Shown one piece after another: positions 10,345 to 27,033 of a stretch of DNA of 64,000 nucleotides. Source of the DNA: Ilumatobacteraceae bacterium. GTDB lineage: Bacteria; Actinomycetota; Acidimicrobiia; Acidimicrobiales; Ilumatobacteraceae. Under the pieces are notes generated by a model. The model did no database searches. It had not been told where the DNA came from and saw only the letters and a list, made by a program, of their open reading frames with translations. Each line of letters starts with the position of its first letter. Within the stretch, counting starts at the first letter, position 1. The stretch is from contig CAVUUX010000003.1 of NCBI GenBank assembly GCA_963744705.1, forward strand, positions 194,706-258,705. The letters run 5' to 3'. Both the position numbers and the translations under genes were made by a program.

Positions 10345-11732
10345 TCAGTCGGCGACTTCGAGGATGCGGACAGGGAGTTCGCGGGGACCGCGGATCTGGC
10401 CGACGCTCCAGCGGGTGTCACCGGCGAGTTCGAAGCGCGGGAAGCGCTTGATGAACTCCTCGATGGCAACCTTCAGCTCCAGGCGGGCGAGGTTCGAGCC
10501 CAGGCACCGGTGGATACCGAGACCGAACGCCGCGTGGCGGTTCTCCTCACGGTCGACGATGAAGGTGTCGGGATCCTCGAACTTCTTCGGATCACGGTTG
10601 GCGGCCGGGAACGGCAGCAGCACCCAGTCGTCCTTCTTCATCGGGCAGCCGTGGAAGTCGTTGTCCTTGGCGACCAGCCGGGCCATCGTCACCGGTGCGT
10701 AGGCACGGAGGAACTCCTCGAGCGCGAACGTCATCACCTCGGGATCGTCGAGCAGACGCTGGTGATCCTCGGGATGCTGGGCGAGGTGCCACAGCGACGA
10801 ACCGATCGCCGACCAGGTGGTGTCGATACCGGCGACGAGCAGCAGGATGACCATGCCGCCGACGACGTCGTCGTCGAGCTTGTTGCCGTCGAGTTCGACG
10901 TTCATCAGGAAGCTCGTGAGGTCGTCGCGAGGGTTCTCGCGATGCTCGTCGATCTGCTGCTGGATGTAGGCGCCGAGGTCGTCCATGCCGTCACGGGTGC
11001 CGGGCTCCTCGTTGATCCGCTCGAGCACGTCGTGGACGAACGTGCGGAACAACTCCTCGTCCTTCTCCGGGAAGCCGAGCATCCGCCCGATGACGTTGAC
11101 CGGGATGTTCTGTGCGTACTGCACCGCGGCGTCGACGACGGATCTCACCGGGGGTGATCTCGCCCATCTCGTCGAGCAGCTTCTGGCACAGCCGCTGGAT
11201 CTCGGGCTCCCACGGCTCGATCATCTTCGGCGCGAAGGCCGGAAGGAGCAGACGACGGGCGATGTTGTGGAACGGTGGATCGCTGGTGATCGGCGGGGCG
11301 CCACCGATCGGGGCCGGCAGCGCCCGATCGCCGGGCCGGCCGACGCTGACCACGACCGAGCGGCTCGTGAAGTTGTCGGTGTCGTAGGCGATCTCGGTGA
11401 CGGTGTCGTTGGTCAGCGGGACCCACATGCCGCCGTAACGGTCGGAGTGGGCGACGGGGCAACCACCTTCGCGCAGCTCCTTCCAGACCTCGGGCGCCTT
11501 GGGGTTGTACGCCGGGTCGGCGTGGTCGAAGTCGGTGCGGAAGTCGCTCGACCGGGCCGTAGTCGTCGAGGTCGTACGGCACGCGCTGCCAGATGTCGGT
11601 GCCCTCGGGGCTGCTTCCGATGACGACGTCGTACGTCTCGCCCTTGCGCTCGACGGTGATGATCTTGTTGCCGGTGGCTTCGTCGATCCGAACGACGGGT
11701 TCGCTCGTGGACGGATTGATGGTGTCGGTCAT
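10345..11732 (-). pseudogene. Cytochrome P450; two frame breaks
   Basis: ORF 10345..11148 holds the I-helix LLVAGIDTTWSAI, the EEFLRAYAP (ExxR) motif and the haem loop [17 protein letters not shown] 10991..11428 gives MWVPLTNDTV...PPITSDPPFHNIARRLLLPAFAP. The N-terminus comes from ATG 11732 (MTDTINPSTSEPVVRIDEATGNKIITVERKGETYDVVIGS...DLDDYG). Breaks lie near 11145 and 11545. Confidence 0.88.
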
Positions 11733-11733
11733 G

Positions 11734-11934
11734 TCAGCCGTTCTCCGTGATGGTGATCGCGTACTCGGGACAGTTGGACGCAGCAAGGCGGGCCTTGTCC
11801 TGCAACTCCTCGGGGACGTCGCCTTCGACGAGCAGCATGGCCTGGCCATAGTCGTCGACGTCGAACAATTCCGGCGCCAACGCGTAGCAACGGTTGTGGC
11901 CCTGGCACTTCTCTGCATCGAGGTGGACTCGCAT
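11734..11934 (-). CDS. Small ferredoxin (P450 redox partner type)
   Basis: MRVHLDAEKCQGHNRCYALAPELFDVDDYGQAMLLVEGDVPEELQDKARLAASNCPEYAITITENG, 66 aa. It ends 2 nt before the P450 ATG. Confidence 0.85.
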   Translation of the reverse strand: MRVHLDAEKCQGHNRCYALAPELFDVDDYGQAMLLVEGDVPEELQDKARLAASNCPEYAITITENG

Positions 11935-12004
11935 ATTTTCCGACTGTAGAGGCCAGAGTGGGGTCGTGACCAGCGCCGGGGCGACTTTTTCGAACATTGT
12001 TCCA

Positions 12005-12691
12005 ATGCTGCTGCTGCCGCCGTCGGAGGGGAAGGCGCAGGGAGGCAGCTCACGGCGTGCCGGCTGGACCCCCGAGTCCGGCGCATTCGGCTCCCGACTC
12101 TCCGATCGTCGGATCGCCGTCGTCGAAGCGCTCGCCTCCATCGGCGGTGGCGACGAGAAACTTCTCGGCGTGAAGGGCGAGTACCTCCTGCGCGCCCAAT
12201 CCGCCAACAGCTCGCTGATCGGAGCGGCGACCTTGCCGGCATGGCAGCGCTACACCGGCGTCGTCTGGGACCACCTCGAGCCCGGCACGCTCCCCGCGGC
12301 CGCCCGCAGGCAGATCGTCGTCGTGTCGGGCCTGCTCGGATTGGTGCGCGCCGACGACCTGATCCCCGACTACCGGTTGAAGATGGGTGCCAACCTGCGC
12401 CCGCTCGGCAAGCTCTCGACGTGGTGGCGCGACGATCTCTCAGCGGAGCTCCGCCGGGTGGCGCGGCGGCGGTTCGTGGTCGACCTGCTCCCCCAGGAAC
12501 ATCGCGCCGCGCTCGATCTCGACGGCCTGGACGGCGTGGTACTGACGCTCGTCGACCCCACCGGCAGACCCGGCGGCCACTTCGCCAAGGCCGCCAAGGG
12601 CGAACTCGCCCGGGCGATCCTGACCGACGGCCTCGGCGTGCTCGACACGTGGCACCACCCCCGGTTCGACCTCGCCATCACCCCGCTCTGA
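12005..12691 (+). CDS. yaaA: Peroxide stress protein YaaA (UPF0246/DUF328)
   Basis: MLLLPPSEGK...LPAWQRYTGVVWDHL...LSGLLGLVRADDLIPDYRLKMG...WWRD...HFAKAAKGELAR. Intact. Confidence 0.8.
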   Translation: MLLLPPSEGKAQGGSSRRAGWTPESGAFGSRLSDRRIAVVEALASIGGGDEKLLGVKGEYLLRAQSANSSLIGAATLPAWQRYTGVVWDHLEPGTLPAAARRQIVVVSGLLGLVRADDLIPDYRLKMGANLRPLGKLSTWWRDDLSAELRRVARRRFVVDLLPQEHRAALDLDGLDGVVLTLVDPTGRPGGHFAKAAKGELARAILTDGLGVLDTWHHPRFDLAITPL

Positions 12692-12698
12692 CTCCGCT

Positions 12699-12800
12699 CC
12701 GATGAGGTTGGAACGGCCGCACAACGAGGGCGTGCACCGGAACCTCATCACACGCCACCCGATGAGGTTGTGGCGCGACAGGTGCACCGAAACCTCATCG
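12699..12800. repeat. Two tandem hairpin repeats (GATGAGGTT ... AACCTCATC) between convergent yaaA and MFS genes
   Basis: Copy 1 has arms at 12701-12709 and 12741-12749. Copy 2 has arms at 12761-12769 and 12791-12799. The shared core ...GGCGCGACAGGT...AAC(C)TCATCGCAGGG also matches the reverse complement of the 20763-20879 repeats. Confidence 0.7.
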
Positions 12801-12813
12801 CAGGGGGTGGTGG

Positions 12814-13992
12814 TCAGCGGCGAACGAGTGTGGTGAGGAACATCGCGAGGATCGAGGGGAGCACGACGATCGCCATGGCCTGGCCGACATCGAAGCTCGA
12901 CGAGTTCGCGAGCGCGCCGACGACGAGGGGCGTCACCACGCCGGCACCGCGCTGGCCGACGAGCATGAACGCGAAGCCCGAACCCGGCGGCCCGGGAGCG
13001 CGGGCGGCACGGTCGTACAACTGCGGGAACAGGACCGACGTACCGAGCCCGCCGACCAGGAACCCGACGATCGCCACCGGCACGCTCGGTACGAGCATCG
13101 CGAGGACCGCGCCGACGCCCATGATGACCGTGGAGATCCGGATCAGTCGAACAGGACCGACGCGCACCTGGACCCAGTCGCCGCTGAGCCGCCCGACCGT
13201 CATCCCCCCGGTGAACGCGAGGAAGGCGAGACCCGCCACCCCGGGGGCTGCTCCCAGATCGTCGCCGAGCCTGAACGACGACCAGTCGCCGTTCGTGATC
13301 TCGATCGCCATGGCAGCCGCACCGCCCACCGCGAGGAGCATCGCTGCGATGTCCAGTCGACCGAGATGGGTCCGTCCCTGGATGGCGGCGGCCTCCTCGT
13401 CGAGTTCCGGGGCCTCGTCACGATGCAGGAGGCCGGGTGCCACGAACAGCAGGGAACCGATGAGCACCAGCGCGACGAACGTCAGCTGCACCTCGGTACT
13501 GACTCCGGCACGCAGCAGCACGACGGTGAGGATGCCGCCGGCAACGGATCCGAGGCTCCACAACCCGTGCAGTCGGTTCATCACCGGCGTGTGCCGCCGC
13601 GCGCTCAGCGCCGACCCCTGCACGTTCATCGCCACGTCGATGAAGATGTCGAAGAACAGCAGCACGAACAGTGCGACGGCCAGCACGACCGCAGACGTCG
13701 CGAACCCGATGATCGGCAGGAACCCGATCGACATCACGGCGCCGTAGATCATCACCCGGCGACTCCCGATCCGAGCGGTCACGCGCCCGGCGAAGACCGA
13801 GCCGATCAGGCTGGCGATGCTCGCCACGGTCAGCACGAGACCGAGCGTTCCGATCGAGATGCCGACCTGGTCGCGGATCTCGGGCAGCCGCGGGATGATC
13901 GTTGCGTAGGTGGCGCCGTTGGCGAAGAACTGCACACCGACCGACTTCAGCGCCCGCCGGTCGACGGCCTCGTCGTGCGTGGAGGTGCTCAT
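12814..13992 (-). CDS. MFS transporter
   Basis: Intact 392-aa ORF with about 12 hydrophobic segments and an MFS-type loop GRVTARIGSRRV. Confidence 0.85.
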   Translation of the reverse strand: MSTSTHDEAVDRRALKSVGVQFFANGATYATIIPRLPEIRDQVGISIGTLGLVLTVASIASLIGSVFAGRVTARIGSRRVMIYGAVMSIGFLPIIGFATSAVVLAVALFVLLFFDIFIDVAMNVQGSALSARRHTPVMNRLHGLWSLGSVAGGILTVVLLRAGVSTEVQLTFVALVLIGSLLFVAPGLLHRDEAPELDEEAAAIQGRTHLGRLDIAAMLLAVGGAAAMAIEITNGDWSSFRLGDDLGAAPGVAGLAFLAFTGGMTVGRLSGDWVQVRVGPVRLIRISTVIMGVGAVLAMLVPSVPVAIVGFLVGGLGTSVLFPQLYDRAARAPGPPGSGFAFMLVGQRGAGVVTPLVVGALANSSSFDVGQAMAIVVLPSILAMFLTTLVRR

Positions 13993-14008
13993 GCTGACGC
14001 CGACCGGA

Positions 14009-15283
14009 TCAGAGACCGGCGGCGGCGTCGCTGCCGGTCACGTCGACGACCGCACTGATCGGACGGCCCGCACCCACCACCGCAGCGAGCGGACCCCCGC
14101 GCACCGTTGCCGACGTGAGTACGACGAACTCGGTCCCCGGCATCGCCTCGGCAGCCACGGCCGCCTTGGCGATGACGCGCCAGACGGCGTCGATGCGACT
14201 CAGGCCCGGCCGGGCCGGCGTGTGCGTACCGCCGAGTTCGAAGAGTTTGACCACACCGTCCGGGCTCGTCGCGCGGAAGCTGACCGTGACTCCCGGAGCA
14301 ACCCTGACGTTCTCGTCGACGTCGCGGTACCCCGCGGCATCGAGCAGCGTGCGTGCCATCTCCTTGAGCGTGCGCCGATCGCGAGGTGCCGCGGGCACCA
14401 TCGACTCGATGCGTTCCCGAGCCCGACGGACGTACCCCGCGTCGGTGTCGTAGCCGATGTAGTGACGGCCGGTGTTGACGGCCGCGACCGCGGTGGTACC
14501 CGAGCCCATGAACGGGTCGAGGACGACGTCGCCGTCGTAGGTGAGCAGCTGGATGCACCGCTCGACGAGCGCCACCGGGAACGGAGCGGGATGACCGACA
14601 CGGGTGGCGCTCTCGGCAGGGATCTCCCAGACGTCGAGCGTCGCCTCCATGAACTCGTCGCCGGGGATCGTCGCCACCCCGGGGTCTCCCGGCGCGGCCG
14701 AACCTCGCCCGACACGGTCGAAGCGTCCCTTGCTGGCGATGATCAACCGTTCGGTCGTGTCGCGCAGCACCGGGTTGGCCGGCGACTGGTAGGAGCCCCA
14801 TGCACACGATCCGCTGGCACCGCGCTGCTTCTGCCAGACGACCTCGCCGCGCAGCAGCAGGCGAAGATCGTCCTGGAGGATGGTGATGACGTCGGCGGCG
14901 AGGCTGCGGTACGGACGGCGCCCGAGGTTGGCGACGTTGACGGCGAGGCGGCCACCCGGCTCCAGCACGCGGACACACTCGGCCAGCACGTCGCGCAGCA
15001 TCGTGAGGTAGTCGATGTAGTCGCCGGGGACGTGCCCCTCACCGAGCGCCGTCTCGTACTCCTTGCCGGCGAAGTACGGCGGCGACGTGACGACGAGCGC
15101 GACCGACGCGTCGGGCACCTGCGACATGTCGCGTGCGTCACCGACGTGGATGACGTCGAGCTCGCCGGGTTCGCCGAGGTCGTCGTCGTCACTGATCTCG
15201 GGCGCGGCGAAGCGCGCGTAGAAGTCGGTCGAGTCGTGCGACTCGCGCTTGCCGACACCGAAGGACGAGGTGGACGTGCCCAT
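14009..15283 (-). CDS. Site-specific DNA methyltransferase, beta class (N4-cytosine or N6-adenine), with about 135-aa uncharacterised C-terminal domain
   Basis: ATG 15283 gives MGTSTSSFGVGKRESHDSTDFY... Motif IV is ALVVTSPPYFAGKEY and motif I is VVLDPFMGSGTTAVAA, so the order IV then I indicates the beta class. The extra tail is TLKEMARTLLDAAGYRDVDENVRVAPGVTVSFRATSPDGVVKLFELGG... Intact. No nuclease gene is adjacent. Confidence 0.85.
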   Translation of the reverse strand: MGTSTSSFGVGKRESHDSTDFYARFAAPEISDDDDLGEPGELDVIHVGDARDMSQVPDASVALVVTSPPYFAGKEYETALGEGHVPGDYIDYLTMLRDVLAECVRVLEPGGRLAVNVANLGRRPYRSLAADVITILQDDLRLLLRGEVVWQKQRGASGSCAWGSYQSPANPVLRDTTERLIIASKGRFDRVGRGSAAPGDPGVATIPGDEFMEATLDVWEIPAESATRVGHPAPFPVALVERCIQLLTYDGDVVLDPFMGSGTTAVAAVNTGRHYIGYDTDAGYVRRARERIESMVPAAPRDRRTLKEMARTLLDAAGYRDVDENVRVAPGVTVSFRATSPDGVVKLFELGGTHTPARPGLSRIDAVWRVIAKAAVAAEAMPGTEFVVLTSATVRGGPLAAVVGAGRPISAVVDVTGSDAAAGL

Positions 15284-16143
15284 CAGGCCGTCAGTCCTCC
15301 GACACGTTGATCGGTCGGATTGACGCCGTCGGCAGCCCGCTGGACGCGCGCGACGGAGGCCTCCCGGGTGGAGTCGTGCGTGAGGATCCAGAACCGGCCG
15401 GCCTTGATCGCAGCGACCACGTCGGCAGCGACCTGGCTCGCCGGGATCCCACCGTCGACGCCGGCCCTCAGCGCCTGGTTGATCAACTGCGCCATGGGCG
15501 AATCGACGGCCTCGGGCTCCTTGCCCATCAGATCGGTCTTCACGAACTCGGGGCAGAGCACGCTGGCGCCGACGGGCGAACCGAGAATCGCGAGTTCGAG
15601 GAACAGGCTCTCGCTCAGTCCGACGACGGCGTGCTTGCTCGCGACGTAGGGCGCGATCCCCGGCGCACCGTTCAGTCCGGCGTGAGACGCCGTGCTGACG
15701 ATGTGGCCGACGCCCTGCTCCTGCATGACAGGCAGCGCGGCACGGATGCCGTAGACGACGCCGAGCACGTTGACGTCGAGCACGCGATGCCACAGTTCGA
15801 CCGGGTCGGTCCAGGCGTCGCCGACTCCACCGATGCCGGCGTTGTTGAACATCACGTGGACGCCGCCGAACTGTTCGACGGCGTACTCGATCAGGGCGTT
15901 CACCTCGGCCTCGACGGTGGTGTTGCACACCATCGTGGCCACCGATGCCCCGTTCTCGCTGAGTCGTGCCTCGACGTCGCGCAGCCTGGGTGCATCGATG
16001 TCTGCCAGCACCACGCTCATGCCCTCGGCGATCAGCGCTTCGGCAACGGCGAGGCCGATCCCGCTCGCCCCGCCGGTGATGACAGCGACGTTGCCGGGCG
16101 CGATGGCGGGCGGACGCGCCTGTGCAGTCTGCGAGTCGGACAT
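15283..16143 (-). CDS. Short-chain dehydrogenase/reductase (SDR)
   Basis: VAVITGGASGIGLAVA, NNAGIGG, YVASKHAVVGLS. Intact. Its TGA overlaps the methyltransferase ATG (TGATG at 15281-15285). Confidence 0.88.
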   Translation of the reverse strand: MSDSQTAQARPPAIAPGNVAVITGGASGIGLAVAEALIAEGMSVVLADIDAPRLRDVEARLSENGASVATMVCNTTVEAEVNALIEYAVEQFGGVHVMFNNAGIGGVGDAWTDPVELWHRVLDVNVLGVVYGIRAALPVMQEQGVGHIVSTASHAGLNGAPGIAPYVASKHAVVGLSESLFLELAILGSPVGASVLCPEFVKTDLMGKEPEAVDSPMAQLINQALRAGVDGGIPASQVAADVVAAIKAGRFWILTHDSTREASVARVQRAADGVNPTDQRVGGLTA

Positions 16144-16202
16144 CGCCCAAATCTAGACGGGCACGGCGGTGCCGGAACGTGACAGCTACCGTTGACGGCG
16201 CC

Positions 16203-18150
16203 ATGGCCTACCGCTACCTCTGGTCTCCCCTCCAGCTCGGCCCCGTCGAGGTGCGCAACCGGATCGTGTTCTCCGCGCACCTCACGAACTACGCGCGCAA
16301 CGGTCTGCCCACCGAGCAGCACGCGGCCTACTACGCGGCGCGGGCGGCCGGCGGCACCGGGCTGATCATCACCGAGGAGCACTCGACCCATCCGACCGAC
16401 TGGCCCTACGAGAAGCTGATCCACGGCTTCCACCGCGAGGTGATCCCCGGGTACCGCAGGATCACCGAGGCCGTGCACCGCCACCGGGTGCCGATCTTCG
16501 CCCAGATCAACCACAACGGCGGCCAGGCGTCGTCGATGTACTCGCGCCTGCCGGTGTGGGGGCCGTCGCCGGTGGCCGACCCGCTGTTCCGCGAGGTGCC
16601 CAAGGCCGTCACACAGGCCGAGATCGACGAGATCGTCGCCGGGCTACGCGCTCGTCGCCGAGCACTGCGCCGAGGGCGGCTTCGACGGCATCGAGCTGCA
16701 GTGCTCGCACAGCTCGATCGTGCGCGGCTTCCTCTCCCCCGCCACCAACCACCGCACCGACGACTACGGCGGCTCGCTGGAGAACCGGGCCCGGCTGCTC
16801 GTCGAGATCGTCGCGGCCGTCCGCAAGGAGATCGGCCGGGGCATGGCGCTCGGCGTGCGGATCTGCGGCGACGAGCTGATCGAGCACGGCACCACGATCG
16901 ACGACGCGGTCCGCATCGCCGAGATCGTCGAGGCCACCGGCCAGGTCGACTACATCAACACCTCGATCGGCGTCGCCACGGCGAGCCTGTTCATGATCGA
17001 GGCGTCGATGCACATCCCGCCCGGCTACGCGATGTTCATCCCCTCCGCGATCCGCAAGGCCGTCGACCTGCCGGTGGTCGGCGTGGGCCGGTTCAAGGAT
17101 CCGCTCCAGGCCGAGCGGGCGCTCGCGGAGGGTCACTGCGACCTCGTCGGCGTGGTGCGCGGCCAGATCGCCGATGCCGACTTCGTCGCGAAGGCGCGGG
17201 CCGGGTCCACCGACGAGATCCGGCTGTGCCTGTCGTGCAACCAGGAGTGCGTCGGCCGGATGGGCCTCAACCGCTGGCTCGGCTGCATCGAGAACCCGCG
17301 CACCGGCCGCGAGTCCGAGGGCGTCGGCACCGTGCGGCTCACGACGAAGCCGAAGTCGGTGATGGTGGTCGGCGCCGGACCGGCCGGGCTCCAGGCCGCG
17401 ATCGCCGCCCGCCGCAACGGCCATCAGGTGACCGTGTACGAGAAGGAGCCGGTCGCCGGCGGGCAGGTGCGCCTCGCGGCATCGGTGCCGAACCGGGCCG
17501 AGTTCGGCGACATGATCCGCAACCAGCTCACCGAGTGCCGGCGCCTCGGCGTCGAGTTCGAGTACGGCGTCGGCGTGTGGCCGGGCCTCGTCGAGGAGAA
17601 GCGCCCCGACCACGTGATCGTCGCCACCGGCGCCGAGCCGGCGCGGCCGTACTGGGTGCCCGCCGACGCCGACAACGTCGCCGACGTGCGCCAGGTGCTC
17701 GACGGATCGGTCGAGCCGTTCGGTGACGTCGTGGTGTTCGACGAGATCGGGTTCCACCACGCCACCTCGACCGCCGAGGTGCTCGCCGATCGCGGCTGCA
17801 ACGTCGAGATCATCACCCCGGGCATGGTCGTGGGCCAGGACCTCGGCATCACGCTCGACATGGAGAACTGGTGGATCCGCGCCGGCGAGAAGGGGATCGT
17901 GCAGACCACCGACCTCGTGCCGATGGGCATGGAGGGCCGCACGCTGAACCTGCTCCACCACCCGACCGGCACGAACGTCACCCGAGCCCCCGACTGGGTG
18001 GTGCTCGCCGTCCACGCCCACCCGGTCGAGTGGCTGTACCACGACCTGAAGGCGGCGGGCGTCAGCGTCGAGCGAGTCGGCGACTGCGTCGCCCCCCGCC
18101 GCGCCCACGCCGCCGTCGTCGAGGGCGAACGCGCCGGCGCCGCCGTCTGA
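16203..18150 (+). pseudogene. NADH:flavin oxidoreductase / 2,4-dienoyl-CoA reductase-like (OYE domain plus FAD/NAD(P) domain); one frame break
   Basis: ATG 16203 gives MAYRYLWSPLQLGPVEVRNRIVFSAH...IFAQINHNGGQ. A break near 16642 (apparent extra G in GCCGGGCTAC) leads into ORF 16720..18150. That ORF carries RGFLSPATNHRTDDYGGSLENR, the Fe-S motif CLSCNQECVGR and VMVVGAGPAGLQAA. Confidence 0.88.
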
Positions 18151-18195: not shown

Positions 18196-18214
18196 TGCGT
18201 GCCAGACTCGGCGG

Positions 18215-20750
18215 GTGATCGACATCGATGCGGCACTGGCCGCACTCAGCCTGGACGACAAGTGCGCACTCGTGGCGGGACGCTCGACGTGGCGGACGCA
18301 TGCGTTCCCCGACGCGGGCGTGCCGCAGCTGAAGATGTCCGACGGCCCCAACGGCGTCCGTGGCGAGGGCCACGGCGGGTCGGGCACGCCCGGCGTCGTC
18401 GTTCCGGCCGGCATCACACTCGGCGCCACGTGGGACCCCGAACTCGTCGGCGAGATCGGCGCGCTGATCGGCACCGAGGCACGCCGCAAGGGCGCGCACA
18501 TCGTGCTCGGCCCCACCGTCAACCTCCATCGGACCCCCGTCGGAGGCCGCACGTTCGAGTGCTACAGCGAAGACCCCGAACTCACCGGCGCGCTCGCGGC
18601 GGCCTACGTCCGTGGCGTGCAGTCCCACGACGTGGCCGTCACGGTCAAACACTTCGCCGCGAACGACACCGAGATCGAGCGGATGAGCGTCGACGTCGAC
18701 GTCGACGAACGCACCCTGCGCGAGCTCTACCTGCGCCCGTTCGAGCGTCGCCGTGAAAGACGGCGACGCCTGGGGGATCATGAGCGCCTACAACCGCCTC
18801 GGCGGCGAGTTCTGCGCCCACAACCGCCGGCTGCTGACGGACATCCTGCGCGACGAGTGGGGCTTCGACGGCTTCGTCGTGTCCGACTGGTACGGCGTCC
18901 ACGACGCGACGGGCGCGGCGAACGCCGGGCTGAACCTCGAGATGCCCGGCCCGGTGCGCATCTACGGCAACAAGCTCGCCGCGGCCGTCGAGCGCGGCGA
19001 GGTCACCGAGGCGCAGGTCGATCGGCTCGTGCGCGACCTCCTCGTGCTCGCCAACCGCACGAAGGCCGACGAACGCTCGGCCGACGAGCCCGAGCAGTCG
19101 GTCGACGACCCGGCCGAGCGGGCACTCACCCGTCGAGCCGCCATCGCCGGCACGGTCCTGCTGCGCAACGACGCCGCGTCGACGGATCGACGGTCCTGCC
19201 CTTCGACGCCACCACGATCCGCTCGATCGCGATCATCGGGCCCAATGCGTCGATCGACCGATGCATGGGCGGCGGTTCCGCCAGCCTCACCCCGTTCGGT
19301 CACCGCACGTTGCTCGCCGCGATCACCGATCGTGTCGGCCCCGGCACCGCGACCGACGCAACCATCACCTACGAGCCCGGCGTGCGCATCGATCGACTGA
19401 CACCGGTCGTCCGCAAGGGACAACTGCTGCGTCCCGACGGCGAGCCCGGCCTGCGCGTGTCGTACGTGAACGGCACCGACTGGGACGGCGAGGTCGCCGC
19501 CGAGGAGACGTCGTCGACCTCACTCGTGCGGTTCTTCGGTTCCACGCCGCCGGGCATCGACCCTCGTGGGTTCGCCGCGCGCATCGAAGGAGCATTCGTC
19601 CCCGACGTCGACGGCCCGCACACGTTCGGCATCGTCACGCACGGGCCCGGTCGCGCTGGCCGTCGACGCCGGCAACGGCATGACCACGGTGGTCGAGGAC
19701 CCGAACATGGAGCTCCCCCGCAGCGAGGAGTTCTTCGGCTACGGCAGCGTGGAGGTCACCGAGACCATCGAGTGCACGGCCGGCGTCCCGGTGCCCGTCA
19801 CCGTCAAGTGGTCGACGACGGCCGGCAACGGGTTCGCCGCGATCCGGCTCGGCGTGCGCTCCCCCGAGCCCGCCGACCTCATGGACCGCGCCGTTGCCGC
19901 CGCAGCGGCAGCCGACATCGCCGTCGTCGTGGTCGGCACCAACGACGAATGGGAGACCGAGGGCCACGACCGCACGACGATGGATCTTCCCGGCCGCCAG
20001 GACGAACTGGTCCGCCGGGTCGTCGCCGCGAACCCACGCACCGCCGTGGTCGTCAACGCCGGCTCGCCGGTGACGATGGACTGGGCGGCCGACGACGACC
20101 CGACGCGCCGCCCGCGCCGTGCTCGACCTCGTTCTTCGCCGGCCAGGAGCAGGCCGAGGGTCTCGTCGACGTGCTGCTTCGGTGACGCCGATCCGGGCGG
20201 GCGCCTGCCGACCACGTTCCCGAAGCGGCTCGCCGACCATCCCGCGTACGTGCACCATCGCCCCGACCACGACAGCACCGGTGCCGGCACCCAGCGCTAC
20301 GGCGAGGGCCTGTTCATGGGCTACCGCGGGTACGACGCCCGCGACCTGGCGCCACGGTTCGCGTTCGGGCACGGCCTCAGCTACGGCAGCGCCGAGTGGG
20401 GCGAGGCCATCGGCGTCGGCGACCACGATCGGCGTCGACGGTTCCCGTCACCGTCACCGTGCCGGTGACCGCCACGGGCGAGCGCGACGCCACGGTCGTC
20501 GTGCAGGGCTACGTCGCACCGGTTGCGCCGAGCGCGAAGCGACCCCCCAAGGAACTCAAGGCATGGGCCAAGTCGGTCGTCGCCGCGGGAACCACGGCGG
20601 AGTCGGTGCTGGAGTTCGGCCCCGACGCATTCCACCACTGGGACACCGCGACCGGACGCCTGGATCGTCGAGCCCGGCGAGTACGACATCGTGATCGCAT
20701 CGTCGGCCGGTGTCGAGCACGCCCGCATCCGCATCACCGTGACGATCTGA
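18215..20750 (+). pseudogene. Glycoside hydrolase family 3 beta-glucosidase; about 7 frame breaks
   Basis: The pieces alternate between two frames. They read MIDIDAALAALSLDDKCALVAG...KMSDGPNGVRGE...GPTVNLHRTPVGGRTFECYSEDP...KHFAANDTE (18215-18745), KDGDAWGIMSAYNRLGGEFCAHNRRLLTDILRDEWGFDGFVVSDW (to about 19190) and ...IAIIGPNA... They continue with MDLPGRQDELVRRVVAANPRTAVVVNAGSPV, FFAGQEQAEGLVDVL, GGRLPTTFP...FGHGLSYG, ATVVVQGYV and WIVEPGEYDIVIASSAG, ending at 20750. Breaks lie near 18745, 19190, 19655, 20105, 20183, 20430 and 20655. Confidence 0.85.
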
Positions 20751-20879: not shown

Positions 20880-20921
20880 CGCGGGCCGCGGAGGGTCGGC
20901 GCTGGGTAGCGTCGGGGCGGC

Positions 20922-21552
20922 ATGGCCGTGATCGTCGCGAACATCGTCACCGACCTCACGGACTGGCTCGACGAGTTCTCGTCGAACTGGTGGTTCCTGC
21001 TGATCATCTTCGCGGTCGCACTGCTCGACTCGGTGATCCCGATCGTTCCCGGCGAGACCACCGTGATCGCCGGTGGGGTGGCCGCCGGCGCCGGCAACCA
21101 GACGCTCGCCCTGGTGATCCTCGCGGGAGCACTCGGCGCCTTCCTCGGCGACAACCTCGCCTACACCATCGGCAACCGCTTCGAGCCGACGGGTCAGGGC
21201 ATGGGCCGCCCGCAAGCCGAACCGCGCGGACGCGACTCGACCAGGCCGGCCGACAGATCCGCAAGCGCGGCGGCCCGCTCCTGATCACCGCGCGGTTCAT
21301 CCCCGGAGGTCGCACGGTGCTGACCGTGTCGTCCGGGCTGACCCGCCAGCCGCGCCGCTGGTTCGCGACCTGGGTGGCGATCGCCGCCGTCATCTGGGCG
21401 ACCTACGCCGGCGGGCTCGGGTACCTGTTCGGTCAAGCGTTCGAGGACGACCACGCCATTGCGTTCTGGCTGGCATTCGGCACCGCGCTCGCCATCACGG
21501 CGATGATCGAGATCATCCGGTGGATCCGCGACCGGCGGACGTCCCACTGTGA
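20922..21552 (+). pseudogene. DedA-family membrane protein; 2-3 frame breaks, 3' end uncertain
   Basis: MAVIVANIVTDLTDWLDEFSSNWWFLLIIFAVALLDSVIPIVPGETTVIAGG...LGDNLAYTIGNRF. Breaks near 21195 and 21235 lead to ...KRGGPLLITARFIPGGRTVLTVSSG...IAAVIWATYAGGLGYLFG. The frame then runs without a stop into the next gene, so a further indel near 21540 and a stop at TGA 21550-21552 is inferred. Confidence 0.7.
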
Positions 21553-21589
21553 TTGCGCACGCCGAGGAGCACGACCGTACGCTGGGCGA

Positions 21590-22572
21590 ATGATTGCGCT
21601 GATCCCGGTACGTGACGGGGTGCTCCCCGCCGGCGCCGCCGAGACGATCAGCGAATGCGACGGCCACGCTCTCGTCGCGGGCAGCCGGAACCGGTGACAT
21701 CGACTTCGACGGGCTGGCGACCACGGCACTGCTCGTCGAACTCGGACCGGTCGAACCCGCCCGCTGGACCGCCGTGCTCGCACCGATCATCCGGCAACTC
21801 GCCGAGCAGGGCGTCGACACCGACATCGTCGTACTCCCCCACGCGCCCGACGGCCGCGACCTCGCACCGCACCTCGCGCTCGCCCTCGATCGGCCGCTGC
21901 TCGCCGGCGCGACCGAGGTCTCGTCCCACCGTGTCCGAGTCGCCCGCCGAGGTGGGCTCGAACTCCACGAGCAACGACCGATCGGACCGTTCGTCGCCAC
22001 GCTGCAGACCGGAGCCCGCGGGCCCGTCACCTTCGAGGGTCCGGCGACGATCGAGCGCATCGACGCTGCCGGGCGACACCGCGTCCACACACGATGCGCA
22101 GGTGGTCGAGGTGCTGCCCCCCGACGTGCGGACGATGGACCTCGCCGAGGCCCGACGGATCGTCGGTGGCGGCGCCGGCCTCGAGAGCGAAGCACGATTC
22201 GGACAGCTCGACCGGTTCGCCGCCTCCATCGGCGGCGTGATGGGTGCGACCCGGGTCATCACCGACCGGTCGTGGGTGCACCACGATCGCCAGATCGGCA
22301 CCACCGGCGTCGTCGTCGACCCCGTGCTCTACCTCGCGTTCGGTGTCAGCGGGGCAGTGCAACACACGAGCGGACTCGGACATCCCGACCACATCATCAG
22401 CGTCAACACCGACCCGCACTGCCCGATGATGGCGATGTCCGACCTGGCGATCGTCGCCGACGCCAACGAGACGCTCGACGAACTGCTCCGCCTGATCGAG
22501 TCGCCATCCGACGAGACGGCAGAGACCGACAGCGACGGCACCGCCGGCACGGGCGAGGCCACCCATGGCTGA
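21590..22572 (+). pseudogene. etfA: Electron transfer flavoprotein alpha-subunit-like (EtfA/FixB); two frame breaks
   Basis: ATG 21590 gives MIALIPVRDGVLPAGAAETISECDGHALVAGS. A break near 21690 is followed by GTGDIDFDGLATTALLVELG...VVLPHAPDGRDLAPHLALAL. A break near 22070 is followed by the FAD-binding C-terminus RRIVGGGAGLESEARF...GATRVITDRSWVHHDRQIGTTGVVVDPVLYLAFGVSGAVQHTSGL. Confidence 0.82.
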
Positions 22573-23878
22573 CGCGATGACCGCCGACGCCATCGTGGTC
22601 GGTGCGGGACCGGCAGGTTCCGCGGCCGCGACCGTGCTCGCCCGCCAGGGGTACTCGGTGATCCTGCTCGAACGCGGCAGCTTCCCCGGCTCGAAGAACA
22701 TGTACGGCGGCGTCGTGTACCCGCGCATCCTCGACCAGCTGCATCCCGAGTGGTGGCTCGAGGCACCGATCCAGCGATGGGTCACCCGCCGCTCGACGAT
22801 GGTGCTGACCGAGACCCAGGCGCTCACCGTCGACTTCCGCTCGACCAATTGGGGGAGCGCCCCCTACAACGGCGCCACCGCCTACCGCCCCGACTGGGAC
22901 CACTGGCTCGCCGGCAAGGCCGAGGCCGACGGCGCCCTGCTCGTGTGTTCCACCACGGCGACCGGCCTGCTGCGCGACGCACAGCGGCCAGGTGGTCGGT
23001 GTCACGACCGACCGCCCCGACGGCGACCTCCACGCCCGGGTGGTCATCGCCTGTGACGGCGTCAACAGCTTCCTCGCCAAGGAGGCCGGGCTCTACGGCG
23101 AGGTCGACGCGGCCAACTACACCGTCGGCGTCAAGGAGACGATCGCCCTGCCGAAGGACGTCATCGACGAGCGCTTCGGCGTGCGCGACCGCGACGGCGT
23201 CGACATCGAGATCCTCGGCGGCACCTCGGGCGTCAACGGCGGCGGGTTCATCTACACCAACCTCGACACGCTCGCCGTCGGTGTCGTGCTCAAGCTGCCC
23301 AAGCTCGGCGCGCAGAAGCTGCGGCCCGAGCAGATCATCGCCAACCTCAAGGCGCACCCGGCGATCGCGCCCACTCGTCGAGGGCGGCGAGATCAAGGAG
23401 TACTCGGCGCACGTCATCCCCGAGGCCGGCCTCTCGATGATGCCGAAGATGACCGGCGACGGGATGCTCGTGGCCGGCGACGCCGCCGCGCTGTGCCTGG
23501 CCGCCGGCATCTGGCTGGAGGGCGTCAACTTCGCGATGGCGAGCGGCATGTACGCGGGCGAGGCGGCCGCCGAGGCCCTCGCCGCGAACGACACCAGCGC
23601 CGCCGGTCTGGCCGGGCTACGAACGCCGGCTGAACGACACGTTCGTGCTCCGCGACCACCGCAAGCTGCGCCGGGCGCCGTCGCTGGTGCTGTCCGATCG
23701 GGTCCAGCACCTCTACCCCGACATGATCGCCAATACGGTCGAGCGCATGTTCCGCGTCGACAACCCGACACCCAAGCCCGGGCTGCGGCGCATCCTGAAC
23801 GAGGAACGCAAGCGCGCCGGCGTCAGGCTGCGCGACCTGGCCCGCGACGCGCGTGACGGCATGAGGACCTTCGGATGA
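22565..23878 (+). pseudogene. fixC: FixC-like FAD-dependent ETF-quinone oxidoreductase; three frame breaks
   Basis: MADAMTADAIVVGAGPAGSAAATVLARQGYSVILLERGSFPGSKNMYGG... It continues with VVIACDGVNSFLAKEAGL, GGGFIYTNLDTLAVGVV, EYSAHVIPEAGL...MLVAGDAAAL and a C-terminus ...VERMFRVDNPTPKPGL. Breaks lie near 22985, 23375 and 23620. The gene overlaps etfA by 8 nt. Confidence 0.82.
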
Positions 23879-24202
23879 GCACACCGCCGGTGAACACCGG
23901 GGCCGACCGGCGAGCGTTGGCCCGAGCTGTCGTTCGAGGACCTGATCGGCTCGACGCGTTTCGACGTCCACGAACGCGCCCACATCACCGTCGACGACAC
24001 GATCTGCGCCGACTGCTCGACCCGCGAGTGCGTCGTGGCCTGCCCGGCCAACCTGTTCGTGCCCACGAGCGACGGCGGCATCCTGTTCAACTACGAACAG
24101 TGCTTCGAGTGCGGCACCTGCTACCTGCTGTGCAACAAGGAAGGCGCCATCACGTGGACCTACCCCGAAGGCGGCCACGGGGTCGTCTTCAAGCGAACGT
24201 GA
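23875..24202 (+). pseudogene. fixX: FixX-like ferredoxin; one frame break
   Basis: ATG 23875 overlaps the fixC stop (ATGA). After a break near 23900 the sequence reads WPELSFEDLIGSTRFDVHERAHITVDDTICADCSTRECVVACPANLFVPTSDGGILFNYEQCFECGTCYLLCNKEGAITWTYPEGGHGVVFKRT, with the stop at 24200-24202. Confidence 0.82.
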
Positions 24203-24227
24203 GCGCACGGTCACCGGTGGCGATGTC

Positions 24228-25057
24228 GTGAGGATCACCGTCTGCTGGAAGTGGGTGTCGCTCGACCGCGAGCACGACGTCGACGAACGCTGGGCCGGCG
24301 TGTCCGCAGCCGACGAGGCCGCGCTCGAGGTGGCGCTCTCGGTGCGTGACGCGGTCGTCGACTGCGACGTGCAGGTGATCTGTCTCGGACCGCCCGAGGC
24401 CGACGACGTGCTGCGTGCCGCGCTCGCCGCCGGAGCGGACTCCGCCACGCGGATCGACGCCTCGCCCGAACTCGACGGGCGCACGGTGGCCGGCGCGATC
24501 GCCGATCACCTCCACGACGCCGACCTCGTGGTGTGCGGCGACTACTCGATCGACCGGGGCACGGGCTCGGTCCCCGCGTTCCTCGCCGCCGAACTCGGCG
24601 CGGCCCAGGCCCTCGGCCTGGTGGGCATCGACGTGACGACGGCGACCACCCTGCCCCTGCGCGTGGTGCGCCGGCTCGACGGCGGCCGTCGCGAAGTGCT
24701 CGACGTGCCACTCCCCGCCGTGCTCTCGGTCGAGGGATCGGTGGCGAGGCTCCGCCGGGCATCGCTCGCCGCATCGCTCGCCTCGCGTGGCACGTCGATC
24801 ACCGCGGTGGCCGGGCCCCCACGGTCGGCCGGCCGAGGCCGAGGTGCACCCGTACCGGCCGCGGGCCAGGACACTGCCGGCCCCGGCGGGTGACTCGCTC
24901 TCACGGGTGCAAGGCGATCCTCGACGTCGGCGGCCACGACGGGCATGCCGAGACGGTGACCCTCGACCCACCGGCGGCCGCACGCCGCATCCTCGACCAA
25001 CTCGACGAGTGGGGCTACGACACGCCGGTTCCGACGCTGAGCCATGCGCCTCGGTGA
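24228..25057 (+). pseudogene. etfB: Electron transfer flavoprotein beta-subunit-like (EtfB/FixA); two frame breaks
   Basis: MRITVCWKWVSLD...ADEAALEVAL...VICLGPPEADDVLRAALAAGADSATRID...DLVVCGDYSIDRGTGSVPAFLAAELG...LPAVLSVEGSVARLRRASL. Breaks near 24815 and 24905 lead to the C-terminus ...ETVTLDPPAAARRILDQLDEWGY, ending at 25057. Confidence 0.8.
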
Positions 25058-25789
25058 TGCGACGTGGACCGAGATCGACCGGGCGACGACACTCGGTCGG
25101 CGGTCCGACGACGGCACACTCGCACCGATCCTGCTGATCCCGGTCGGGTCGACCGAGCAGCACGGGCCCCACCTTCCTCTGGCGACCGACACGTTGATCG
25201 CCGAGGAGATCGCGGGGCGGGCGGTTCATCGCACCGACGGCCTGATGATCGGCCCGACGATCTCGGTCAGTGCGTCGGGCGAGCACGCCGACTTCCCCGG
25301 CACGCTGTCGATCGGAACGGCGACCACCACGGCCCTCGTCGTCGAGTTGGTGCGCAGCGCCGACTGGGCCGCCGGCGTGGTGCTCGTGAACGGCCACGGC
25401 GGGAACCACGGAGCCATCACCGACGCGGTGGCGACGCTCACCGCCGAGCGGCGCACCGGTGCTGGGGTGGTGGCCGTCGTGGCCGCGGCGCCTCGACGGT
25501 GGCCCCGCCGACCTGCACGCCGGGCGGATCGAGACGTCGATGATGCTGGCGATCGACCCCGGACTCGTGCGACTCGAACTCGCCGTCGCCGGCGCCGACG
25601 CGTCGCATCGACGAGTTGCGCACGCGCGGGGTACGCGCCGTCAGCGCCAACGGTGTGCTCGGCGACCCCGACGGCGCATCGGGACGTGAGGGAGAGAGGT
25701 TCATCACGGCGTTCGTCGACGACCTCGTCCATCAGATCGAGCGGTGGCGCCCGATCGACCCGCCGTCCGAACCGGTGTCGGACACCTGA
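25044..25789 (+). pseudogene. mftE: Creatininase-family protein, mycofactocin MftE-like; two frame breaks
   Basis: MRLGDATWTEIDRA...ILLIPVGSTEQHGPHLPLATDTLIAEEI...VLVNGHGGNHGAI. A break near 25455 is followed by GGPADLHAGRIETSMMLAIDPGLV. A break near 25605 is followed by IDELRTRGVRAVSANGVLGDPDGASGREGERF, with the stop at 25787-25789. The gene overlaps etfB by 14 nt. Confidence 0.75.
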
Positions 25790-27033
25790 TCGACGCCGTG
25801 CGATATCGACTCGACAGTTCGTGGCAGCGGTTCGACGGCATCGTGCATCGCCGGCTCACCGCTGCGACTGTTCCGCACGACCGCGGCCGGGAACGCTGGT
25901 GCTCGACCGGCTGCAGCACGGTGACGACGTGGCGGAGTCCGTGCTCGTCGACCGCTTGCTCGATGCCGGTGCGATCCATCCCCGACCCGAGGGCCCTGCG
26001 AAGCTCGGAATCGACGACGTCACGGTCGTGACCCCACAGTTGCGTGCCGAGGCCACGAGCCGGGCATCCGCCGACGGCCGCATCACGATCGACGACGGCT
26101 CGGTGCCGCCACTCGCCGGTGCGACCCGTCGCCTCCCGGTCACGAGCGGCCCGGCGGCGGCGCGGAACGCGGCGCGGCCGTTCATCGGGACCGAACTCGT
26201 GGCGTTCCTCGACGCCGACGTCGACGCCCCCGACGGCTGGCTCGAACCGCTGCTCGCCCACTTCGACGACCCGAAGGTCGGCCTGGTCGCCCCGCGGGTC
26301 ACCGGCGAGACCGGATCGCCGCTCGACCTCGGCGACGAGCCCGCCCGCATCCGCTCCGGCACGCGGGTGAGCTACGTGCCCGGCGCCGCGCTGGTCGTGC
26401 GGGTCGCCGCGTTCGACGCCGTCGGCGGGTTCGATCCGACACTGCGGTTCGGCGAGGACGTCGACTTCGTGTGGCGCCTCGACGAGGCGGGCTGGCGATG
26501 TCGATACGAACCCGCCGGCGAGGTCTGGCACGAGCCCCGCGCCACGTTCGGCGCCCGCCTGCGGCAGCACGCCGGCTACGGCACCTCGGCCGCTCCTCTG
26601 GCCCTCCGACACCCGGGCGCGCTCTCACCGGTGCGGTTCAACGGATGGACGGCGTTCGTGTGGGCGGCGATCGTCGGTGGCCATCCCGTGATCGGTGGCG
26701 CCGCGGCGATCGGGAGCTCGCTCGCCCTCGGCCGCAAGCTGCCCGACGTACCGAGAGCGGCATCGTTCGGGCTCGCCATGCGCGGGCACCTGCTCGCCGT
26801 ACGCCAGCTCACCGCTGCGGTGCGCCGGGCATGGTGGCCGATCGTCCTGGTCGGCTCGCTCGTCTCGCGACGGATGCGCTGGATCGCACTCGGATCGGTC
26901 GCTGGCCGACGTCCGGGCGACGCCGACCGACGTCGCCTACGGATGGGGCGTGTGGCGTGGCATGCGGCGCCACCGCACGTGGAGCCCGATCGTCCCGCGC
27001 GTCAGCGCATGGCCGGGGCGTCGGCCGACCTGA
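25744..27033 (+). pseudogene. mftF: GT2 glycosyltransferase, mycofactocin MftF-like; three frame breaks, start uncertain
   Basis: The pieces read YRLDSSWQRFDG, IAGSPLRLFRTTAAG and LVLDRLQHGDDVAESVLVDRLLDAGAIHPRP...DDVTVVTPQL. They continue with AARNAA...FLDADVDAPDGWLEPLLAHFDDPKVGLVAPRV...SYVPGAALVVR...FGEDVDFVWRL...YGTSAAPLALRHPG, followed by TM segments. The C-terminus is TDVAYGWGVWRGMRRHRTWSPIVPRV, ending at 27033. The N-terminal GSPxRLxR and LLDAGxxHPRP motifs and the C-terminal AYGxGxWxG motif match my recollection of M. tuberculosis MftF (Rv0696). Breaks lie near 25840, 25885 and 26900. Confidence 0.75.

Follow-up and report, generated by a model that had tools for sequence, protein, structure and literature searches.

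The stretch analysed here (hereafter the window) comprises 64 kb of contig CAVUUX010000003.1 from an Ilumatobacteraceae bacterium. Between positions 21589 and 27033 it carries six co-directional genes on the + strand, etfA-fixC-fixX-etfB-mftE-mftF, which join an electron transfer flavoprotein (ETF) and its putative quinone oxidoreductase to two enzymes of the mycofactocin system. Together with an upstream oxidoreductase gene of the FadH/OYE family (OYE_2), these genes are the distal half of a split ETF-type mycofactocin cluster. The locus is thus a known variant and not a new system, and its mftD-less nature has already been remarked in print. Judging from gene content, it is somewhat probable that in clusters of this type OYE_1, OYE_2, EtfA/EtfB and FixC/FixX replace both MftD and MftG.

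What is known of mycofactocin biology stems almost wholly from mycobacteria, in which MftD generates the redox centre and the cofactor is recycled by MftG. MftG is lacking in part of the mftC genomes, and some mft clusters are without MftD as well; for the functions left vacant, the ETF/FixCX module with its FadH/OYE partners, so far known as names of database models, is the evident candidate. The window adds a very abundant soil and freshwater lineage, the Ilumatobacteraceae, to the carriers of this variant, and shows that the two halves of a mycofactocin cluster can lie apart.

Gene identities, conservation and state of the sequence

When the frameshift-repaired proteins were compared with the curated NCBIfam models by hidden Markov model search, the identities proposed in a first-pass annotation of this DNA were borne out: EtfA reaches 340.5 bits against NF038209 (cut-off 240), EtfB 219 bits against TIGR04503 (cut-off 200), MftE 227.5 bits against TIGR03964 (cut-off 172) and MftF 296.5 bits against TIGR03965 (cut-off 280), and all the motifs quoted in that annotation are present in the translations. 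OYE_2, which it had not recognised as belonging to the system, scores 914.8 bits against TIGR03997, with a cut-off of 793.15. Regarding the two remaining proteins, the best NCBIfam matches of FixC are FixC models at 307 bits, and FixX matches PRK15449 with 53.7 bits (E=1.8e-14), in both cases under the cut-offs; their intact orthologues likewise stay under the curated cut-offs of the NCBIfam FixC and FixX models. An intact FixC orthologue (locus L002) aligns with chain C of the Thermotoga maritima EtfABCX complex (7KOE_C) at E=1.4e-72 and, by sequence, FixC is an unambiguous homologue of this menaquinone-reducing EtfC, which binds menaquinone in 7KOE (PMC10734219).

The relatives were scanned with one genome per GTDB species, and 420 genomes encode a relative. 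The best 80 of them, all Acidimicrobiia and chiefly Ilumatobacteraceae metagenome-assembled genomes (MAGs), were taken together with one JGI contig, giving 81 loci for synteny analysis by tblastn. All four ETF/Fix genes were found in 74 loci, on one strand and in the order alpha-C-X-beta in every one of them, so that the atypical order pointed out in the first-pass annotation is real. MftE directly adjoins EtfB in 51 of 69 loci, 64 loci have MftE together with MftF, and in 53 relatives OYE_2 is encoded upstream of etfA. The closest EtfA homologue, 90% identical to that of the window, is encoded on a 260-kb Ilumatobacteraceae MAG contig (L001/L004) where the genes are intact and their order is identical, and in ten genomes of a soil clade every gene is intact and evolves under purifying selection. 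As the same order recurs in dozens of independent genomes, the adjacency is real and old; it is not unique to this contig and is due neither to chance nor to misassembly. In 18 distant loci, etfB and mftE are separated by inserts of 0.2-4.4 kb, in which mftABCD were sought and only unrelated genes were found, among them an insertion sequence transposase, a crotonase, TetR regulators, and major facilitator superfamily (MFS) and ABC transporters; the TetR regulator was considered as a candidate MftR and rejected.

Some deviations from the common arrangement were observed among the relatives. In L054 and L072, two uncultured Acidimicrobiia MAGs, MftF directly follows EtfB (~12490-13400) with no MftE by tblastn, while MftE is present in all other loci reaching that far. 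In L001/L004, fixC and fixX are called as a single open reading frame (ORF) of 544 amino acids (10989-12623), which is a genuine fusion or else stems from an indel error of the MAG, unlike in the window and in L002, where the two genes are separate. The distant loci L060 (~1682) and L067 (~1493) encode, upstream of etfA, a radical SAM protein resembling glycyl-radical activases (FLQGCNFDCIACHNP), which is not MftC.

The window has a G+C content of ~70%, hence spurious ORFs throughout, and a codon-usage Viterbi path over the six frames switches frame every 0.3-1 kb along the whole 64 kb, gatCAB included. Each of the six genes is broken as an ORF, and one to four frame corrections per gene are needed. 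Over 6.2 kb aligned with its closest relative (L004), the window shows 92.3% nucleotide identity and differs by 17 insertions and one deletion, each of a single base; once these indels are removed, no internal stop is left and the ratio of nonsynonymous to synonymous differences (pN/pS) lies at 0.06-0.28. Therefore, the frameshifts are assembly or sequencing errors and not signs of pseudogenisation. The idea that the whole locus is an artefact, a chimeric contig or else decaying pseudogenes without function, draws on the frameshift in every window gene and is almost certainly wrong: the order is identical in 74 independent loci with intact ORFs, the indels are nearly all single-base insertions, the frame switches extend over the entire window, and the conservation data refute it. 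Between 20900 and 27300, about one single-base insertion per 350 nt was counted relative to the 92%-identical relative, the inserted bases being mostly C or G and mostly outside homopolymers. The frame switches seem more closely spaced at 18-30 kb than, for instance, in gatCAB (36-43 kb), and ORF-based annotation of the contig will split its genes into fragments.

The split cluster and the ETF-type variant in annotated genomes

A six-frame motif search of the 64 kb found nothing for mftA, mftB, mftC, mftD or mftG, and the MftA, B, C, D, G and R proteins of relatives, used as tblastn queries, gave no window match at E<=1e-3 or 1e-4, in agreement with the earlier statement that mftABCD are not in the window; for OYE_1, queried with the protein of L082, nothing above 42% identity was found there by tblastn. 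The same holds for most relatives, as mftABC lie within 10 kb in just one of the 80 genome loci. The compact loci L082 and L084 present the undivided arrangement, with mftA, mftB, mftC and OYE_1, then three unrelated genes for a methylase, PlsY and an SDR (short-chain dehydrogenase/reductase), then OYE_2, DedA, EtfA, FixC and FixX. The L082 locus goes on to EtfB, MftE and MftF, and the stored sequence of L084 stops inside fixX; zinc-dependent alcohol dehydrogenases before mftA were seen in L084. The genes of L082 were verified by NCBIfam, its OYE_1 scoring 705 bits against TIGR03996 (cut-off 628), and those of L084, a locus found via MftC look-up, by recorded Pfam matches.

The methylase-SDR-OYE_2 block is common to the window and the compact clusters, and upstream of the methylase the window has unrelated genes; therefore, the window represents a split arrangement. 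The break in synteny with mftABC-OYE_1 is placed just past the methylase. A complementary first half is found in L091, which has mftB-mftC-PlsY-...-OYE and no ETF within 10 kb; this relative with the split mftB-mftC-OYE half was located through its MftC, 83% identical to the MftC of L082. The region in L091 (GCA_963851795.1, CAWKPZ010000004.1, 11807-15407) contains mftB-mftC, PlsY, a protein resembling F420H2-dependent quinone reductases (PF04075), the OYE-family protein and a class-III aminotransferase. Ilumatobacteraceae MftC proteins are plentiful in databases, and Ilumatobacter coccineus has MftC (Graca et al. 2025, PMC11778925). The mftA-B-C/OYE_1 half presumably lies elsewhere in the genome from which the window derives.

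In three RefSeq-annotated Streptomyces plasmids, the complete variant forms one operon, mftA-B-C, OYE1, OYE2, etfA, fixC, fixX, etfB and mftE/F, where FixC is annotated as "FAD-dependent oxidoreductase" and FixX as "4Fe-4S dicluster protein". The plasmid gene tables are incomplete: on the plasmid of S. sp. SAT1 the first OYE is annotated just as FAD-dependent oxidoreductase and the OYE 2 position is without a listed gene, and in NBC_00564 no mftF is annotated after mftE, with an unassigned glycosyltransferase located upstream of mftR. A canonical Streptomyces plasmid (sp. NBC_00080) carries mftR, mftG and mftA-B-C-D-E-F. Among twelve plasmids with mftC, MftD and MftG are encoded on none of the six of ETF type, and MftD on all four of the other bacterial ones. 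In addition, tblastn with MftD and MftG matched neither the window nor a single related locus, and a search for the GMC signature found nothing. In the sampled clusters, the ETF module and the MftD/MftG pair are thus complementary.

In the co-occurrence table published by Graca et al. 2025 (PMC11778925), MftG is missing in 77 of 311 mftC genomes, and S. yangpuensis, S. sp. SAT1 and Ilumatobacter coccineus are MftG-negative genome-wide, as are Aquihabitans, Iamia and all five Saccharopolyspora; the MftC proteins listed for S. yangpuensis and S. sp. SAT1 are those of the ETF-type plasmid clusters. Moreover, 17 Saccharopolyspora mft clusters without mftD and with a TIGR03997 gene, including that of S. 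erythraea, were described in the BGCFlow paper (PMC11162802), and both oxidised and reduced methylmycofactocins were detected in S. erythraea (Ellerhorst et al., PMC9679996). As these compounds occur there in both redox states, an organism lacking mftD and mftG makes a working cofactor. ETF is unmentioned in these three papers, and open-literature searches combining mycofactocin and electron transfer flavoprotein turned up no paper. The first-pass annotation had regarded the linkage as undescribed, which does not stand: the ETF variant is already curated in NCBIfam as NF038209, TIGR04503, TIGR03996 and TIGR03997, and the models are applied in RefSeq annotation, NCBI having given the mycofactocin-ETF naming to P0107 and to six Streptomyces plasmids.

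Proposed electron path and its alternatives

In the established pathway, MftABC and MftE make 3-amino-5-[(4-hydroxyphenyl)methyl]-4,4-dimethylpyrrolidin-2-one (AHDP); canonical MftD is the oxidative deaminase of AHDP, and MftG, modelled by TIGR03970/TIGR04542, is a GMC-family mycofactocinol dehydrogenase. Trimethylamine dehydrogenase (TMADH) and histamine dehydrogenase oxidise amines, the kind of reaction needed at the MftD step from AHDP to premycofactocin, and pass the electrons of their Fe-S cluster to an external protein, TMADH being the classic ETF donor (TMADH-ETF pair, PDB 1O94). OYE_1 and OYE_2 belong to the same three-domain FMN/4Fe-4S family as these two enzymes, together with FadH and 2-naphthoyl-CoA reductase (NCR). 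OYE_2 possesses an FMN-binding TIM barrel, a 4Fe-4S cysteine motif (CLSCNQEC...GC), an FAD/ADP Rossmann domain and a third domain without GxGxxG. In alignments with Protein Data Bank (PDB) structures, its four cluster cysteines (CxxCxxxC...C) and the first dinucleotide fold are conserved, while in the third domain the sequence VVVFDEIGFHHA stands at the site of the NAD(P)H glycine motif of FadH-type enzymes, a site at which histamine dehydrogenase has VVVYDDDHYYLG. OYE_2 has the degenerate motif of the third domain in common with both TMADH and histamine dehydrogenase.

The position of the module in the mftD slot, the loss of MftD and MftG, and the likeness of the OYE proteins to TMADH and histamine dehydrogenase lead to a model in which electrons would pass from OYE to ETF, then to FixX/FixC and menaquinone; from these features we infer which substrates are used, which way the electrons flow and that they end at the quinone. 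Thus, after MftABC and MftE had produced AHDP, the OYE enzymes would oxidise it to premycofactocin and/or re-oxidise mycofactocinol, their 4Fe-4S cluster would hand the electrons to the dedicated ETF, and ETF would pass them through FixX and the FAD of FixC, which together form the predicted membrane-associated ETF:quinone oxidoreductase, to menaquinone, the cofactor being glycosylated by MftF. It is possible, and offered tentatively, that the module is a replacement of MftD and MftG coupled to the respiratory chain and perhaps independent of O2, where a TMADH-like Fe-S flavoprotein would deaminate AHDP and/or re-oxidise mycofactocinol. The first-pass annotation had proposed ETF/FixCX as the menaquinone link in place of MftG, which is plausible considering that ETF-type clusters are without mftG and their carriers MftG-negative; that MftD would be replaced as well had been missed, and would extend that idea. 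If true, Acidimicrobiia, Saccharopolyspora and some Streptomyces would produce and recycle mycofactocin by a second and mechanistically distinct route. The comparative pattern provides a hypothesis testable in culturable hosts, namely S. erythraea and Streptomyces with ETF-type plasmids.

Several observations weigh against this model. OYE_1 and OYE_2 score higher against the reductases 2-naphthoyl-CoA reductase and FadH than against TMADH, and could therefore reduce rather than oxidise. The two proteins also lack the cysteine to which FMN is covalently attached in TMADH and histamine dehydrogenase, OYE_2 having SAHLTNY where histamine dehydrogenase has VPHCNG. In L091, the MftD step could instead be taken over by the aminotransferase beside OYE_1, through conversion of the amine of AHDP into the keto group. 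EtfA and EtfB are roughly as far from bifurcating ETFs as from non-bifurcating ones, so that a bifurcating role of the Fix type is conceivable. Furthermore, the absence of MftD and MftG covers the clusters, their flanks and the plasmids, and genome-wide just MftG, through the published table.

An unlikely alternative is that ETF/FixCX serves only as a mycofactocinol:menaquinone link, its electrons coming from reduced mycofactocin or from mycofactocin-dependent nicotinoprotein dehydrogenases, and that an unrelated enzyme does the MftD step. The lack of MftG in ETF-type clusters and organisms, the homology of FixC to a quinone-reducing protein and the aminotransferase next to mftC/OYE_1 in L091, which could replace MftD, are all compatible with such a narrow role. 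However, MftD is missing in exactly those clusters that gained the OYE/ETF module, which occupies the very slot of mftD between mftC and mftE/F, and only a part of the MftG-negative taxa in the published table are known ETF carriers. Less probable still is a bifurcating complex of the Fix type, which would oxidise NADH or reduced mycofactocin and reduce both menaquinone and a low-potential acceptor, the latter powering the radical-SAM enzyme MftC or reductive OYE/FadH-like enzymes. The four-subunit make-up is that of T. maritima EtfABCX (PMC10734219), the top PDB matches of EtfA are the bifurcating ETFs CarE 6FAH and 4KPU, and OYE_1 and OYE_2 are nearest to the low-potential reductases NCR and FadH. 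Yet the near-equal distance of EtfA and EtfB from both ETF classes, with EtfB at 44-48 bits, and a gene order unlike fixABCX do not favour bifurcation. Nor do the hosts, which are aerobic actinobacteria possessing other ferredoxin reductases. At the C-terminal of EtfB, moreover, inspection by eye finds PYRPRAR/PYRPRPR at the site of the group-2 motif GxxSPTxV (motif as given in PMC10734219).

Improbable, finally, is the loss of mftABC from the soil lineage, with OYE_2, ETF/FixCX and the MftE/MftF-like proteins serving a different glycosylated cofactor or another function; the first-pass annotation had suggested a distinct system reusing MftE/F-like enzymes. The window does lack mftABC over 21 kb upstream and 37 kb downstream, and their rarity within 10 kb of the genome loci points the same way. 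Against this, the proteins pass equivalog cut-offs, compact relatives and Streptomyces have the orthologues in one stretch with mftABC, Ilumatobacter coccineus and many other database entries of the family have MftC, a split first half of the type mftB-mftC-OYE exists in a relative, and MftE and MftF are under purifying selection.

Gene boundaries, neighbouring genes and comparison with known systems

The coordinates of the system genes and of two neighbours are collected below.

Table 1. Features of the window assigned or adjacent to the ETF-type mycofactocin system
Feature	Position	Strand	Basis and remarks
OYE_2 (mycofactocin system FadH/OYE family oxidoreductase 2)	16192..18064	+	TIGR03997; one frameshift inside gene
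GH3 beta-glucosidase, between OYE_2 and DedA	18213..20745	+	translation; system membership uncertain
DedA/VTT-family membrane protein, directly upstream of etfA	20914..21546	+	system membership uncertain
etfA, mycofactocin-associated ETF alpha	21589..22572	+	NF038209; frameshifts near 21687, 22069
fixC, FAD-dependent ETF:quinone oxidoreductase subunit	22565..23878	+	FixC homology; three to four frameshifts
fixX, ferredoxin-like, two Cys clusters	23875..24202	+	PRK15449 and Cys motifs; frameshift near 23905
etfB, mycofactocin-associated ETF beta	24228..25057	+	TIGR04503; frameshifts near 24811, 24910
mftE, creatininase-family peptidase	25044..25789	+	TIGR03964; frameshifts near 25456, 25607
mftF, GT2 glycosyltransferase	25790..27033	+	TIGR03965; frameshifts near 25845, 25896, 26900

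The junctions were inspected base by base, and the overlaps and the gap described earlier for the six genes proved exact. The etfA stop (TGA 22570-22572) lies inside fixC, whose ATG is at 22565, giving an 8-nt overlap; fixC (TGA 23876-23878) and fixX (ATG 23875) have an ATGA in common; fixX (TGA 24200-24202) and etfB (GTG 24228) are separated by a 25-nt gap; and etfB (TGA 25055-25057) overlaps mftE (ATG 25044) by 14 nt. The mftE stop is the TGA at 25787-25789 and the mftF stop is at 27031-27033, while the start of mftF is blurred by a neighbouring indel. In relatives, mftE and mftF overlap by 4-46 nt, and the true mftF start of the window is probably upstream of 25790, overlapping mftE.

Between OYE_2 and etfA, the window holds a glycoside hydrolase family 3 (GH3) gene and a DedA gene. 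The GH3 orthologue in L002 has recorded Pfam matches to Glyco_hydro_3, 3_C, PA14 and Fn3-like domains, and the gene is present in 42 related loci, in which its position between OYE_2 and DedA-etfA is kept. Mycofactocin bears a beta-1,4-glucan tail, and a trimming of the sugar chain of the cofactor by GH3 would be speculation. The DedA protein of the window gives weak matches to the NCBIfam DedA models, its orthologues match Pfam VTT_dom, and in 26 loci it lies no more than 400 nt upstream of etfA, as measured from the ends of tblastn high-scoring pairs. DedA stands directly before etfA in many Acidimicrobiia loci, including L082 and L084, but not in the Streptomyces operons. Further upstream, positions 10347-16105 are syntenic with L004 and encode a P450/ferredoxin, YaaA, an MFS protein, a CcrM-like N6/N4 DNA methyltransferase and an SDR; the latter (15320-16105) was tried as a mycofactocin-coupled SDR and rejected, with 120 bits against a cut-off of 300.

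The nearest known system is the ETF/OYE mycofactocin variant of NCBIfam, of which the S. yangpuensis plasmid NZ_CP102515.1 (253.5-264.8 kb) is an example. The window has the orthologues in the same order, OYE_2, etfA, fixC, fixX, etfB and then mftE/mftF, with neither mftD nor mftG, and the etfB-mftE overlap is common to the window and Streptomyces sp. NBC_00564. Unlike in the Streptomyces plasmids, the mftA-B-C-OYE_1 half is missing, OYE_2 and etfA are set apart by GH3 and DedA, and the locus belongs to an Acidimicrobiia MAG and is apparently chromosomal; the order of mftE and mftF also differs from that in two of the three plasmid clusters examined. Compared to the canonical mftR/mftA-B-C-D-E-F-G cluster, as in Mycobacterium and Streptomyces sp. 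NBC_00080, MftE and MftF are orthologous, adjacent, in the same order and translationally coupled, whereas ETF/FixCX takes the place of mftD upstream of mftE and the GMC oxidoreductase MftG is absent.

Regarding the electron-transfer part, the window resembles the EtfABCX/FixABCX systems of T. maritima (7KOE) and diazotrophs in its four subunit types, its homologous FixC and the two cysteine clusters of FixX, and menaquinone is the predicted end acceptor in both. However, its EtfA and EtfB are highly divergent, the alpha-C-X-beta order of the window and its 74 relatives differs from the beta-alpha-C-X of EtfABCX, and its context is cofactor biosynthesis, unlike the nitrogen fixation or anaerobic energy conservation of the Fix systems. 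As in the TMADH-ETF pair of Methylophilus methylotrophus (1O94) and in histamine dehydrogenase, an FMN/4Fe-4S flavoprotein without an NAD(P)H fingerprint is found beside a dedicated ETF, although OYE_1 and OYE_2 are without the covalent-FMN cysteine and by score nearer to FadH/NCR. By analogy with MftG (Graca et al. 2025, PMC11778925), the proposed role would be to bring electrons from mycofactocinol to the respiratory chain; the two are unrelated in sequence and fold, the window encoding a multi-subunit Fe-S/flavin chain where the canonical system has a single GMC enzyme.

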